Positions 7,031-26,576 of a stretch of DNA of 64,000 nucleotides are shown one piece after another; positions within the stretch are counted from its first letter, which is position 1; each line of letters opens with the position of its first letter. The translations under genes and the position numbers were made by a program. The stretch covers positions 97,306-161,305 of the forward strand of contig JBFMAF010000032.1 of the NCBI GenBank assembly GCA_040755995.1. Reading direction: 5' to 3'. The notes under the pieces were generated by a model that ran no database searches, had not been told where the DNA came from, and was given only the letters and a program-made list of their open reading frames with translations. Source of the DNA: Acidobacteriota bacterium. GTDB lineage: Bacteria > Acidobacteriota > CAIWXX01.

Positions 7031-7059
7031 TTGACGAGCCGCTCCGATCCGAGTAGTCT
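7031..7059 (+). promoter_or_regulatory. sigma70-like promoter for the uORF-secA2 transcript (probably leaderless)
   Basis: TTGACG-17 bp-TAGTCT, ending 6 nt before ATG 7066. Confidence 0.55.
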
Positions 7060-7065
7060 CACTCC

Positions 7066-7314
7066 ATGAGGCGTCGGAGCAGCATGAGCGCCGGGGTCGT
7101 TCGATGGTTTGGATTGCTGCTCTTGCTGGCCCTCGTCGTCTCGACCGCGGGTCCGGACGCTGCGAAAGACCCCGCCTGCTTGCTGCCGCTGCCTTTCTTC
7201 TTGGCGGTCGTGGCCGCTTGTCTGGGCAACCGGGAGCCGACCCCGGACCTGGTCCTTCCGCTGCGCGCGCAGTGGACGATATCGCCTGCCTCACCCCGCG
7301 CCCCTCCTCGCTAG
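7066..7314 (+). CDS. putative secretion-monitoring ribosome arrest peptide (RAPP-type uORF)
   Basis: 82 aa with basic N-terminus and hydrophobic segments, C-terminus ISPASPRAPPR; lies directly upstream of secA; a second copy of the tail conserves the peptide through synonymous changes. Confidence 0.75.
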   Translation: MRRRSSMSAGVVRWFGLLLLLALVVSTAGPDAAKDPACLLPLPFFLAVVAACLGNREPTPDLVLPLRAQWTISPASPRAPPR

Positions 7315-7378
7315 AACTGCCTGCCGTTCGTCCCGGCGGAGTCCATCCGCCGTTTCCAGGCAATCTTCATCGAGGAGG
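7303..7378 (+). promoter_or_regulatory. anti-SD/SD stem-loop sequestering the secA2 ribosome binding site
   Basis: CCTCCTCG (7303-7310) is the exact reverse complement of CGAGGAGG (7371-7378); inner stems TGCCTG/CAGGCA and CGGCGGA/TCCGCCG. Confidence 0.7.
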
Positions 7379-7383
7379 TCACC

Positions 7384-9831
7384 TTGTCACGAATGTCCCT
7401 CATGGCTTCCAACGCTGCCGACCGCATCACAGAGCGCTGCCGACGGCTGCGTCGAAGCCCTGTCGAATACGATCTTGGCCCCTATCGCGCCGCCCTGGCC
7501 CGCGTGAATGCGGTCAGGGTCGAAGCGTTTTCAGACGCCGCCCTGCAGGATCTGGCCGGCAGTTTGAGATCGAGTGCGGCCGGTGGTGCGCCGCTCGATA
7601 CTCTCCTGCCCGAGATGTTCGCGCTGGTTTGCGAGACATCCAGGCGGGTTCTGGGCATGCGCCCTTTCGAGGTTCAGATGATGGCGGGGATCGCGCTGCA
7701 TCAGGGACGGCTGGTTCAAATGCAGACGGGTGAGGGGAAGACTCTGGCCGCTGTTCCACCCGCCAGTCTCAACGCACTCACTGGCTCCGGGGTCCACATC
7801 TTCACTGCGAACGACTACCTGGCCGAGCGCGATGCCCGGTGGATGGGGCCGCTTTACCGGTTCATCGGCCTCAGCGTGGGCTTCATCCGCCAGGGGATGA
7901 GCAGCGAGGAACGACGCCGGGCGTACGCGTCTGATGTCACCTACGTCACCGCCAAAGAGGCCGGCTTCGACTTCTTGCGCGATCACATCGCCGGCGACCG
8001 GCGCGATCAGGTGCACCGGCCTCTTCAGCACGTGATAGTGGACGAGGCCGACTTCATTCTGATCGACGAGGCACGAGTCCCCCTGGTCATCGCGGGCAGC
8101 TCGCCCGGCTCCGGGGTCGACCACGCGCGGCTGGCCGGCATCGTCCGTCCGCTTCGCAACGGCCGCGACTACCTGGTGCAGGACGAGGCCCGCAACGTGA
8201 CATTGACCGACGCGGGGTTCGCGCGTCTGGAGGGGACACTTGGCGTGCCGTCGCTGCATCTGCCCGAACAGCACCTGCTGCTCTCAGCAGTGAGCGTCGC
8301 GCTTCACGCAGAAGTGCTGCTGCATCGCAACAGGGACTACATCGTGCGAGACGGCAGAATCGAGCTCGTCGACGAGTTCACCGGGCGTGTGGCGGACAAT
8401 CGACGTTGGCCGCACGGCATACAGGCGGCCGTGGAGGCCAAGGAGGGGCTGGAAGTGCACCAGGAGGGCCGCATCCTCGCATCGATTCCCATCCAGCACT
8501 TTGTCCGGCTCTATCCCCGGATCGCCGGAATGACGGCCACGGCCGAGCCCGCGGCCGAGGAGATTCATGAGCTGTACGGGATGCCGACCGTCGTCTTTCC
8601 GCCACACCGTCCCTGCATCCGGCGCGATGAGGATGATGTCGTGTTCACCCACCGAGATGCCAAAATGCGATCGCTGGTAGAAGAGATCCGCCTGGTTCAT
8701 GCGTCGGGCAGGCCGATCCTGGTAGGCACCGCGAGCGTGCGCGAATCCGAGGAGCTCGCGCAGATGCTGCGCGAACACGGCCTCAAGTGCTGCGTGCTGA
8801 ACGCGAGGAATGACGCGCGCGAAGCGCAGATCATCGCGCAGGCAGGACGGCTTCATGCCCTGACGATCTCGACCAATATGGCGGGCCGCGGCACCGATAT
8901 CGCGCTGGGTGGAGGCGATCACGTCGAGCGTGACCGCGTCCTCGCACTCGGCGGCCTCTACGTCATCGGCACGAACCGTCACGAGAGCCTGAGAATCGAC
9001 CTCCAGCTCCGCGGGCGGGCCGGCAGGCAAGGGGACCCTGGCAGCTCCCGGTTCTTCATCAGCCTCGAAGACGACCTCGTGAGCCGGTATGGCGTCAAGG
9101 ACCTCGTCCCGCCTTCCCACTGGCCGGAGAGGCGGGAGACACCGGTTGATGACGGAGTGCTGCGGCGGGAGATCGCCCGGGCCCAACGGATCATCGAGGG
9201 GCAGAACTCGGAGATCCGCAAGACGCTTTGGCAGTATTCGGCGCTGGTCGAGAAGCAGCGACAGGAGGTGCATCGGTTGCGGCAGGATCTCCTTGCTGGT
9301 TTGGTGCAACCCGGCATCTGCGCGGGAATCTGTGCCGATCGCTACAAGAAGCTCCGCGGTCAGATTGGAGAAGAGGAGTTGGAGAAGGCGGAAAGGGTGC
9401 TGGCCATACGCCTTCTGGACCGATCCTGGTCGGACCACCTGGCCACCATCGAAGACATTCGAGAGGGCATCCATTTGCAACGGTACGGCGGTGGGGAGCC
9501 GTTGGACGAATTCGTGCGGCTTGCCGGAGCCGCGTTCTCCGACAGGATGCGGGAGGTCGAAGACAGCCTGCCGGCGGCATTCGAGCGACTCAGTGTGACG
9601 GCGGGGGTTATTGACTTGGAGGCCGTGGGCCTTACGGCGCCTTCGGCGACCTGGACGTACATGATCAATGACAATCCGTTCTCGAGCCTGGGCGTCTCGT
9701 TGATCGCCTGCAGGAACATCGGCTTCGCCGCCTGGGCGGGCATAGTCGCGATGCTCCACGCGCCCCTGGCACTGCCCGGTCTGGTGCTCATGTGCCTCAA
9801 CCGGCTTCTCCGGAGGCGACGCCGGAAATGA
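7384..9831 (+). CDS. secA2: accessory protein translocase ATPase SecA2
   Basis: MQTGEGKT, DEADFILIDEARVPL, STNMAGRGTDI, QLRGRAGRQGDPG; C-terminal ATWTYMINDNP as in actinobacterial SecA2; no Zn-binding tail. Confidence 0.9.
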   Translation: MSRMSLMASNAADRITERCRRLRRSPVEYDLGPYRAALARVNAVRVEAFSDAALQDLAGSLRSSAAGGAPLDTLLPEMFALVCETSRRVLGMRPFEVQMMAGIALHQGRLVQMQTGEGKTLAAVPPASLNALTGSGVHIFTANDYLAERDARWMGPLYRFIGLSVGFIRQGMSSEERRRAYASDVTYVTAKEAGFDFLRDHIAGDRRDQVHRPLQHVIVDEADFILIDEARVPLVIAGSSPGSGVDHARLAGIVRPLRNGRDYLVQDEARNVTLTDAGFARLEGTLGVPSLHLPEQHLLLSAVSVALHAEVLLHRNRDYIVRDGRIELVDEFTGRVADNRRWPHGIQAAVEAKEGLEVHQEGRILASIPIQHFVRLYPRIAGMTATAEPAAEEIHELYGMPTVVFPPHRPCIRRDEDDVVFTHRDAKMRSLVEEIRLVHASGRPILVGTASVRESEELAQMLREHGLKCCVLNARNDAREAQIIAQAGRLHALTISTNMAGRGTDIALGGGDHVERDRVLALGGLYVIGTNRHESLRIDLQLRGRAGRQGDPGSSRFFISLEDDLVSRYGVKDLVPPSHWPERRETPVDDGVLRREIARAQRIIEGQNSEIRKTLWQYSALVEKQRQEVHRLRQDLLAGLVQPGICAGICADRYKKLRGQIGEEELEKAERVLAIRLLDRSWSDHLATIEDIREGIHLQRYGGGEPLDEFVRLAGAAFSDRMREVEDSLPAAFERLSVTAGVIDLEAVGLTAPSATWTYMINDNPFSSLGVSLIACRNIGFAAWAGIVAMLHAPLALPGLVLMCLNRLLRRRRRK

Positions 9832-10084
9832 GGGCGCCGCGGCCCACTGACGATGTTCGTTCCAGGGCCATTGACATCGCGGCCCTGATGGATGTCCCCG
9901 ACACGGTCGTAGTCTGAACTCACACAGCACGTCCCAGACGGCGTCGACTCGTTGAATCCCTCGTGAACTTCCGACGCGCTGTGTGGCCGCTGCCGGCCGT
10001 CGGTGTGGGACGTGATATGATGCGCTCCATGTACACCGAGGGGCATTCCTTCGTGACGTGAAAGAGACGAGAGGAGAGAACACC

Positions 10085-13929: not shown

Positions 13930-15162
13930 ATGTCTGGAAACTCGCCGCGCCCCACCGACAGAAGATCATTCATCGCGACAGGTCTGTCCTGTGTTGCCGG
14001 GGCAACACTGCTGCACTCCGCGACCCAGTCTGAACAGATGACCGGTTCAGAGGGCACGAAAGGCCGGAAGATGATCAGCCGGACTCTCGGGAGGACGGGG
14101 ATCAGCCTGCCCATCGTCAGCATCGGGGCGGTGAGCTTCGATCCGGGGATCTACCGGCGAGCGCTCGACCTGGGCATACGTCACTTCGACACGGCCCCCG
14201 CCTATCGCAATGGCAACCATGAAACGATGTTGGGCGAGGTCCTTCGAGGCCGCCCGCGAGACTCGTTCGTCATCGCCACGAGCTTCGGGTCAGAGGTCTA
14301 CCAGGACCGTCGGACCCGCACGTTCAAAGAGGACGCGCCAGTCAAAGCCCTGATCGAGTCATTCGAAGGGAGTCTCAGGCGGCTGAAGCTGGACTACATC
14401 GACATCTACTACCTGGCCTGGGCCTGCAGCAAGGAGACGACGCTCTACAGGCCGTACATCGACGCGATCATGAAACTGAAGGATCAGGGCAAGACGCGGT
14501 TTATTGGTGTCACCACCCACGAGAACGAGCCGGAGGTCTTGCGCGCCGCGGCCGGGACTACGCTCATCGACGTCGTGCTCACAGTCTACAACTTCCGGCA
14601 GACGTACCGGGAAGAAATGAAGAAGGCGATCGCGAACGCGGCGAAGGCGGACGTGGGCATCGTAGCGATGAAGACGCAAGCTGGTGCATCGTGGGACGAG
14701 GAGTCCGCGCGCATCGTCAATATGAGAGCGGCTCTGAAATGGGTGCTGTCGGACGAGAACGTTCATACCGCAGTCCCCGGCATAGCGACGTACGATCAGC
14801 TGGAGGCGGATTTCAGGGTCATGGAGAATCTGGCCCTGACCGCCGCGGAAGAGGAAGACCTGGAACGAGCGCTCCGCGTTCCCTACCGCACGTTCAGTCT
14901 TTTCTGCCAGAACTGCCGGGAGTGCGTCGCCCAGTGCCCACATCGGTTGGACATTCCGGCGCTCATGCGCGGTTATATGTACGCACGGGGATACAAGGAT
15001 CCGGGCAAGGCCAAGGAGGCGCTGCGCCGCGCGAGAATCACCCGCGTACCATGCGGCGAGTGCGGACAGTGCCACGTCACCTGCGCCATGGGTTTCGATG
15101 TTCGTTCCAGGGCCCGAGACATCGCCGCCCTGATCGATGTGCCGGATACCGTCGTTGCCTGA
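13930..15162 (+). CDS. aldo/keto reductase with Tat-like signal and C-terminal 4Fe-4S dicluster
   Basis: DRRSFI; RTLGRTG, FDTAPAY; CQNCRECVAQCP and CGECGQCHVTC. Confidence 0.88.
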   Translation: MSGNSPRPTDRRSFIATGLSCVAGATLLHSATQSEQMTGSEGTKGRKMISRTLGRTGISLPIVSIGAVSFDPGIYRRALDLGIRHFDTAPAYRNGNHETMLGEVLRGRPRDSFVIATSFGSEVYQDRRTRTFKEDAPVKALIESFEGSLRRLKLDYIDIYYLAWACSKETTLYRPYIDAIMKLKDQGKTRFIGVTTHENEPEVLRAAAGTTLIDVVLTVYNFRQTYREEMKKAIANAAKADVGIVAMKTQAGASWDEESARIVNMRAALKWVLSDENVHTAVPGIATYDQLEADFRVMENLALTAAEEEDLERALRVPYRTFSLFCQNCRECVAQCPHRLDIPALMRGYMYARGYKDPGKAKEALRRARITRVPCGECGQCHVTCAMGFDVRSRARDIAALIDVPDTVVA

Positions 15163-25703: not shown

Positions 25704-25751
25704 CAGCATCCGGCTCGTACTTGCGGGCAGGGGGCGGGTGGCCAACCGCCC

Positions 25752-26029
25752 CTGCGCGCGCAGGCGACGATATCGCCTGCCTCGCCGCGGGCCCCTCCTC
25801 GCTAGGACTGCCTGCCGTTCGCCCCAGCGGAGTCTCTCCGCAATTTCCAGGCAATCTTCATCGAGGAGGTCGCTTTGTCCCGCATGGCCCTAATGGCTTC
25901 CAACGCTGCCGAGCAGTCGCGTCGGGGAGGAGCAATTGGAGAAGGCTGAAAGGATACTGGCCATACGGCTTCTGGATCGATCCTGGTCGGACCACCTGGC
26001 GGCGATCGAAGACATACGAGAAGGCATCC
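25752..26029 (+). pseudogene. internally deleted relic of a second uORF-secA2 locus
   Basis: 25752-25911 resembles 7261-7421; 25925-26029 resembles ~9368-9471 (EEQLEKAERILAIRLLDRSWSDHLAAIEDIREGI). Confidence 0.85.
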
Positions 26030-26357: not shown

Positions 26358-26576
26358 ATGCGTCGTGCCATGCGGCTCGCAGGCTATGGTGTTCTGGCGC
26401 TGGCGCTCGCCGTCGCCGCTCTCCTCTTTCTTCACTACGTGCCGTTTGCCGCGGCGAGCTTCGCCGTATGCCTTCTGAAGTACGTCCACATCCTTGCTGG
26501 TTCGGCCGATTCTCAGCTGCGCCGGAGGAAATATCTGATGCCCTACCCCCACCTCAGAGGGCCCAGAAGACTCTGA
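26358..26576 (+). CDS. small hydrophobic hypothetical protein
   Basis: RBS GAGGAG, 72 aa, long hydrophobic stretch. Confidence 0.45.
   Translation: MRRAMRLAGYGVLALALAVAALLFLHYVPFAAASFAVCLLKYVHILAGSADSQLRRRKYLMPYPHLRGPRRL

Follow-up and report, generated by a model that had tools for sequence, protein, structure and literature searches.

Introduction

In E. coli, the upstream open reading frame (uORF) secM precedes secA, and the ribosome stalled on it opens a stem that hides the Shine-Dalgarno (SD) sequence. Leaders ending in RAPP in front of sec genes form an established class as well. The RQH family comprises eight groups before secA plus orphans, and arrest-dependent exposure of an SD was demonstrated for one secDF leader (Fujiwara, 2024; PMC10987492). 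Here we describe a candidate RAPP leader of 82 amino acids directly upstream of an accessory secA2 gene in a 64,000-nucleotide stretch of an Acidobacteriota genome (GenBank assembly GCA_040755995.1, contig JBFMAF010000032.1, positions 97,306 to 161,305; hereafter the window). We consider it fairly probable that this uORF is a ribosome-arrest monitor that sets SecA2 output through an anti-SD hairpin.

Because such leaders are already well established in front of sec genes, the device itself is unsurprising, and its pairing with secA2 in Acidobacteriota is published as three table rows. Supplementary file 9 of PMC10987492 holds three Acidobacteriota rows with RAPP uORFs, all before an "accessory Sec system translocase SecA2", namely the orphans uA_RQH_Vicinamibacterales (OFW23334.1, MYN65371.1) and uA_RQH_Acidobacteriales (PYX92352.1), besides one Spirochaetota row, uA_RQH_Treponematales (OHD16937.1). 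Like our leader, the uA_RQH orphans are uORFs of 74-101 amino acids with RAPP near the end and directly before secA, and the two Vicinamibacterales peptides have 78-82 amino acids and two predicted membrane segments. One of the leaders that we collected, at locus L125, was judged by eye to be a close relative of MYN65371.1. Unlike our leader, the orphans figure as table rows only: the terms "accessory" and "Acidobacteri" are absent from the main text of PMC10987492, and its Results contain no test of them.

The original prediction that the locus may be an undescribed member of the class does not hold in that form, because the arrangement is already in the RAPP/RGPP catalogue, although the peptide itself is absent from it: SPRAPPR had no match in the searched supplementary files of PMC10987492, the remaining parts of which may bear on novelty. 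Among the matches listed, a literature search at the level of titles and abstracts found no paper linking SecA2 to an arrest peptide in the present sense, and the ten supplementary files of PMC12992588 that were searched contain no match to SecA2. The value of the present locus lies in its target, an accessory SecA2, and in the sample size. The RSPP-dominated group of 47 leaders described below is not in the table of file 9 with its three Acidobacteriota rows; the orphan search of PMC10987492 covered RAPP and RGPP only. We found no earlier report of so large a group, of its short and fixed spacer or of a predicted membrane anchor on such a SecA2.

Architecture of the leader

The elements of the locus, with the basis for each in brackets, are as follows.

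7031..7059, plus strand: sigma-70-type promoter TTGACG-17-TAGTCT, with transcription predicted to begin on the ATG at 7066 or beside it (sequence)
7066..7314, plus strand: candidate RAPP arrest peptide, the 82-amino-acid uORF (open reading frame call; positional group of 50 leaders)
7090..7146, plus strand: hydrophobic helix 1, residues 9-27, signal-like or transmembrane (AlphaFold2, hydropathy)
7177..7227, plus strand: hydrophobic segment 2, about residues 38-54, with a Pro kink (AlphaFold2 helices 36-39 and 41-54)
7297..7308, plus strand: RAPP motif, R78-A79-P80-P81 (sequence; stall position after PMC10951233 and PMC10987492)
7303..7310, plus strand: anti-SD arm CCTCCTCG, the P- and A-site codons (folds, synonymous-codon test)
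7313..7366, plus strand: inner stems of the hairpin (folds of both copies; consistent changes in the remnant copy)
7371..7379, plus strand: SD region of secA2, GAGGAGGT (sequence, folds)
7384..9831, plus strand: accessory secA2, 815 amino acids, intact (TIGR04221, 819.8 bits against a cut-off of 725)

The uORF ends in ISPASPRAPPR*, and its stop codon lies 69 nucleotides before the TTG start of secA2 at 7384. The frame with its hydrophobic segments, this ending and the gap, as well as the promoter (TTGACG at 7031-7036, a 17-nucleotide spacer and TAGTCT at 7054-7059), were found just where the original prediction had placed them. The promoter matches the consensus at 8 of 12 positions and was therefore below the threshold of the promoter scanner and missing from its list. 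A TTGAC-N17-19-TANNNT layout precedes 38 of 50 related leaders, as opposed to 9 of 1203 control windows. Because the ATG of the uORF stands 6 nucleotides behind the -10 box and has no SD, the message is probably leaderless. Among the 50 leaders, 16 have an ATG 4-9 nucleotides behind a -10-like box, compared with 127 of 2981 other ATGs.

AlphaFold2 run on an alignment of the 50 leaders predicted helices at residues 9-27 and 41-54 and left the last 28 residues unstructured (mean predicted local distance difference test score 75, predicted template modelling score 0.38). A polar loop separates the two helices, as it does in the leaders at loci L125, L140, L154 and L173. By analogy with the published RAPP peptides, a stalled ribosome would be expected to hold P80 in its P site and P81 in its A site, which places the end of segment 2 about 25 residues before the P-site Pro; from the first helix to the motif the distance is about 53 residues. 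Pfam and NCBIfam scans of the uORF gave no Pfam family and no NCBIfam family near its cut-off, and no similarity to ApdA or ApdP was detected outside the motif. A search with the uORF alone returned only itself among 52 candidates, and a further one returned itself plus a low-complexity stretch of a 4967-residue protein.

Among the features that characterize the RQH family, the locus has a small same-strand frame of unknown function directly upstream of a sec gene, an N-terminal signal or transmembrane segment according to hydropathy and the predicted helices, a C-terminal RAPP-like motif kept among relatives (RAPP in the remnant copy, RxPP in 47 of 49 loci of one class) and a stem predicted to mask the SD of the next gene and to reach into the position of the stalled ribosome.

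Apart from the shared arrangement before secA, the resemblance to SecM suggested in the original prediction was not borne out. The uORF lacks the FxxxxWIxxxxGIRAGP sequence, ends in RAPPR and matched no SecM model; SecM has spacers of about 71 or 131 residues, as reported in PMC10987492, where the uORF has 25 residues counted from its second helix and about 53 counted from its first, and it lacks the long secreted spacer of SecM. Moreover, the target here is the accessory SecA2, and the canonical secA of the same genome has no leader of this kind. ApdA and ApdP differ in controlling secDF and in having signal sequences with longer, variable spacers (PMC10951233; PMC10987492). MifM and ApcA are closer in build, as they are small membrane leaders with a narrow helix-to-stall distance and have been linked to insertion monitoring (PMC10987492), although they control yidC, and MifM has a median spacer of 54 and an arrest sequence unrelated to RAPP. 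By this comparison, the short and fixed helix-to-stall distance looks more like that of a membrane-insertion monitor than like that of SecM.

A predicted hairpin over the secA2 Shine-Dalgarno sequence

The arm CCTCCTCG at 7303-7310 spans Pro80, Pro81 and two bases of Arg82 and is the reverse complement of CGAGGAGG at 7371-7378, so that, as had been claimed, the Pro-Pro-Arg codons complement the SD of secA2 and enclose the inner stems; the sequence and the folds agree on this. The 96-nucleotide stretch has a predicted fold of -36.4 kcal/mol (z -4.13), which none of 200 shuffles equalled. Opening the GGAGG of secA2 was predicted to cost 12.3 kcal/mol, falling to 6.0-6.2 kcal/mol with a ribosome placed over the Pro-Pro codons. 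A cost of at least 12.3 kcal/mol occurred in one of 400 genes drawn from the 479 that carry GGAGG in the genome (sample median 3.9). When all 16 synonymous Pro-Pro pairs were folded, only CCT-CCT reached 12.3 kcal/mol and the others gave 7.4-8.3. CCTCCT accounts for 278 of 6665 Pro-Pro pairs in the long frames of this genome.

Leaders before secA2 in related bacteria

SecA2 relatives, taken at E ≤ 1e-185, were found in 22 of 401 genomes of the phylum, in 49 of 201 genomes in the class of genome G365 and in 15 of 151 in the class of genome G109. In the G365 class, the initial motif filter recovered a leader at 45 of 49 secA2 loci, and 47 once RPPP was admitted; of the remaining two loci, one lacks a leader altogether, and in the other it is divided between two frames. 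As a motif-based filter risked circularity, the comparison was repeated blind to the motif. A hydrophobic upstream frame then appeared at 48 of the 49 loci, with an R[S/A/G/P/D]PP end at 47, against none of 23 canonical secA loci (one more set aside); among 82 other loci, 9 had a hydrophobic frame and 3 an RxPP end.

This distribution bears on chance as an alternative: in a GC-rich genome, the Pro-Pro codons of a spurious frame could complement a GGAGG by accident. In favour of this, 230 frames of the genome end in R[AG]PP within three codons of the stop, Pro codons start with CC and pair readily with GG, and the closest SecA2 relatives have no such frame. However, a hydrophobic stretch joined to a terminal RxPP occurs in only 11 frames of the genome, the leader stands before 47 of 49 secA2 genes and before none of the 23 canonical ones with its promoter layout conserved, and CCTCCT is used in a small share of Pro-Pro pairs. 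The 11-frame count, the contrast of 47/49 with 0/23 and the folding cost reached by one gene in 400 largely refute chance, which we regard as highly improbable.

Two further loci were noted in passing. At L145 (about 90-280), the hydrophobic part and the RSPP end lie in different frames, owing to a frameshift or an assembly error, and genome G647 has two secA2 genes, one (L187 or L193) with a RAPP leader and the other without.

Geometry and coding of the 50 leaders

From the chosen starts, the 50 leaders are 60-88 amino acids long and carry the motif 1-11 residues from the stop, as RSPP in 27, RAPP in 12, RGPP in 8, RPPP in 2 and RDPP in 1. The R and the PP are invariant in all 50, in peptides with a mean column identity of 21%. 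The residues at the second motif position (S, A, G, P and D) are the same set that was permissive in the mutagenesis of ApdA (PMC12992588). From the end of the hydrophobic block to the P-site Pro, the median distance is 23.5 residues (interquartile range 20-25), and in 33 of 50 leaders the first kink Pro precedes the P site by 41 residues. For a membrane helix, pulling sets in at a distance of about 45 residues to the peptidyl-transferase centre (PMC7886326). When the 50 leaders were scanned against Pfam and NCBIfam, only weak single-member matches came up, and a profile of all 50 matched 18 among 8000 scored proteins, hypothetical where named.

Opening the SD was predicted to cost a median of 7.55 kcal/mol across the 50 leaders and 3.45 once the ribosome footprint was removed, the cost falling by at least 2 kcal/mol in 39 of them. 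In 21 leaders the SD is predicted to pair with the Pro-Pro codons, and in 20 with the stop a little further on. Of the 21 leaders with a Pro-Pro anti-SD, 17 have CCTCCT, compared with 1 of the 20 with a stop anti-SD; the Fisher value of 7e-7 overstates this association because the loci are related and not independent. CCT stands at the two Pro sites in 28 and 29 of 50 leaders, compared with 7.3 expected from the secA2 genes.

The leaders with the anti-SD at the stop allow a second explanation, namely translational coupling without true arrest, in which ribosomes arriving at the stop codon open the hairpin and RxPP is a weak pause at most. In these 20, the anti-SD is 12-20 nucleotides past the P-site codon, at the edge of the stalled footprint, and the commonest motif, RSPP, was only partly permissive in ApdA and ApdP (PMC12992588). 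Coupling, however, needs neither an Arg nor a membrane hairpin, and both the Arg and the Pro-Pro are invariant across 50 divergent peptides; we judge coupling alone to be quite unlikely.

A third explanation accepts that a stall opens the SD and takes it to be constitutive or cued by something else, such as lipid state, a ligand or redox; the stall could also hold the message at the membrane, so that an anchored SecA2 would be made beside the translocon. RAPP leaders are known to control genes other than sec (PMC12992588), three RSPP leaders bearing His and Cys lie elsewhere in this genome, SecA2 carries its own predicted membrane anchor, and part of helix 2 would not yet have left the tunnel when the ribosome stalls. 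The copper leaders CruR (DUF2946) and CutF are likewise exported or membrane uORFs with RAPP or polyproline before the regulated gene. In contrast to those, none of the 50 leaders matched DUF2946, the uORF has two isolated Cys residues with neither a CxxC nor a His cluster, no alignment column of the group is dominated by Cys or His, and the downstream gene is secA2. Furthermore, the helix-to-stall distance is fixed where an insertion force would be expected. Another cue is, in our view, improbable, if less so than coupling.

The three leaders just mentioned are on the minus strand of contig C8 of the same genome, in frames ending at 89404, 83134 and 80101. They are related to one another, about 100 amino acids long and signal-bearing, contain His and Cys residues, end in RSPP and are followed by GGAGG and a gene, which for two of them encodes a long exported protein. 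They look like metal leaders of the CruR/CutF kind.

Evidence against an arrest monitor of SecA2

Several results weigh against the uORF being an arrest monitor of SecA2, among them the distribution beyond the G365 class. Whether orthologous secA2 loci keep the uORF had been raised with the original prediction, and the answer is divided: it is kept in 47 of 49 loci of one class and absent from most other lineages. A leader was present at 2 of 16 other loci of the phylum (our own included), at 3 of 14 in the G109 class (all in one genus), at 1 of 37 loci of named genomes (L049, Spirochaetales, RGPP; 3 set aside and a few SecA matches other than SecA2 included) and at none of 29 metagenome loci (21 set aside for absent upstream DNA or N-terminus). 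The SecA2 behind our uORF has 23 SecA2 proteins as its sister clade (support 1.0), and a leader is missing at all 19 of their loci that could be assessed. This placement comes from a FastTree tree of 122 SecA proteins and 782 columns with weak deeper nodes, which kept only 6 canonical SecA proteins and left out 6 near-duplicate or split loci as well as proteins shorter than 650 amino acids or without an N-terminus. Loss of the leader in the sister clade would be the simpler reading. The class of our genome comprises three genomes, where the only relative with a secA2 (L180, G002:C122), of the same family, has that gene split across two frames and no leader upstream.

Descent is a second point. 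A profile built from the 47 leaders of the class gave the uORF 10.4 bits, ranking it fourth among 108,821 frames of its own genome, and 1 of 200 shuffles scored as high; without the motif the score was 1.4 bits. The same profile gave 6.0 bits for the leader of L125 and -6.2 bits for that of L049. Position and architecture appear to tie the uORF to the group, and common descent is unproven because the profile score is weak. In addition, 9 of the 50 leaders have the predicted partner of the SD at neither of the two sites, and the 6.2 kcal/mol still needed at our locus with the ribosome present is the 84th percentile of the gene sample. The secA2 start is a TTG with an SD spacing of 4-5 nucleotides. 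The published threshold asks for over 30 residues between localization signal and motif; the spacer falls below this, at 25 residues, when counted from the last hydrophobic segment, and is about 53 when counted from the first helix. Most RAPP-like sequences of ordinary proteins do not stall (PMC10987492).

Proposed mechanism

Sequence and comparison establish which parts are present, how they are spaced and conserved, and that a hairpin is predicted. Conservation and folding support the core of the original prediction, a RAPP arrest with an anti-SD switch before secA2; its claims of novelty and of likeness to SecM needed correction, as described above. We propose that translation of the probably leaderless message begins at 7066 and that the ribosome, once stalled on CCTCCT, would occupy the arm that otherwise buries the SD of secA2. 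SecA2 would be made because the stalled ribosome covers this arm. At the stall, helix 2 would start about 42 residues from the peptidyl-transferase centre, where the pull of entry into the translocon begins. When insertion works, this pull would free the ribosome, translation would terminate at the TAG, the hairpin would re-form and secA2 would go down; when insertion is slow, the stall would last and secA2 would go up. A stall at RAPP seems to us very likely, and we hold a working anti-SD switch in vivo to be just as credible; given stalling, release by membrane insertion or export and not by another signal is likely.

A more specific proposal is that the leaders are a hitherto undescribed set of insertion monitors built as helical hairpins. 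The stall would be freed when the hairpin, with its Pro kink and at a short, constant distance, integrates into the membrane, and the leaders would control a tail-anchored SecA2. We put this forward tentatively, as a minority possibility. If true, SecA2 would be an inducible, membrane-tethered helper for the integration of membrane proteins or a backup for the single SecYEG, and not an exporter of special substrates, and the leader would be a ready reporter of its role. SecA2-only systems are little understood beyond a few lineages. With its fixed geometry, its natural RSPP, RAPP, RGPP, RPPP and RDPP variants and an anti-SD at either of two sites, the set of 50 leaders offers a direct handle on the signal that induces SecA2 and on a possible role in membrane insertion.

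The accessory SecA2 and its predicted anchor

9718..9828, plus strand: predicted C-terminal membrane anchor of SecA2 (hydrophobic at about residues 779-805, then a basic tail)

The product of secA2 is above the cut-off of TIGR04221 (SecA2_Mycobac) and below those of the canonical SecA models, and its closest named matches are from Acidobacteriota. Similarity and placement in the tree are the basis for the SecA2 label of five other proteins. The genome (7.7 Mb, 62.7% guanine plus cytosine, 99.8% complete) also has a canonical secA, on contig C21, and a single secY, which makes this a SecA2-only arrangement with a mycobacterial-type accessory SecA2. The DNA upstream of that canonical secA contains no RAPP-type leader. 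By eye, no substrate cluster or secY2 cluster was seen beside secA2, and the downstream neighbours vary among loci.

Of the 47 leader-bearing SecA2 proteins that are complete, 46 carry a hydrophobic segment C-terminal to the conserved WTY..ND.F block, in most cases with a basic tail behind it; the single exception has an internal stop, and three cut or short proteins were set aside. This C-terminus is predicted to be a membrane anchor. It also occurs in many leader-less SecA2 proteins of the clade and is absent from the canonical, actinobacterial and planctomycete SecA proteins compared. A literature search of titles and abstracts found no prior description of such an anchor.

A remnant second copy in the window

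25749..25912, plus strand: remnant piece 1, with the uORF tail, the hairpin, the SD and the first secA2 codons (164 bp, 88% identity)
25924..26029, plus strand: remnant piece 2, a wing/scaffold fragment of secA2 (106 bp, 87% identity)

The second copy, described earlier as decayed, is indeed present, although it is better read as a two-piece deletion remnant than as the product of slow decay. The 19 uORF codons common to both copies differ by four synonymous changes and one replacement (W70 to A), and a codon comparison confirmed the three synonymous changes reported within ISPASPRAPPR. Piece 2 has 8 synonymous and 3 replacement changes among 35 codons, and all 68 codons compared have 15 and 7, respectively. 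As the changes are mainly synonymous, the remnant is consistent with a distinct functional allele that was truncated afterwards, and not with a slowly decaying copy of secA2. Folds and alignment agree with the earlier claim that the anti-SD, the SD and the inner hairpin are preserved; the predicted cost of opening the SD in the remnant falls from 11.2 to 5.3 kcal/mol. For RAPPR and the hairpin, the remnant is a closely related and in part independent line of evidence, but it is itself unable to work. We rejected it as a functional second switch, since it has no promoter, no start codon, no hydrophobic part and no intact gene behind it. W70, which stands at the position of SecM W155 relative to the stall site, was given no weight because Ala replaces it in the remnant and the leader group shows no conservation of it.

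Behind the remnant, at a distance of 330 nucleotides, lies a 72-amino-acid hydrophobic frame with an SD (26358-26576) and a Pro 38 residues before an RGPR ending. Its geometry is alike, but we rejected it as a similar leader since it ends in RGPRRL and no same-strand gene follows. The window contains a second gene remnant, directly behind secA2: a 48-bp repeat at 9851-9898 is an 87.5% match to 15096-15143, within the 3' end of an aldo/keto reductase gene (13930-15162).

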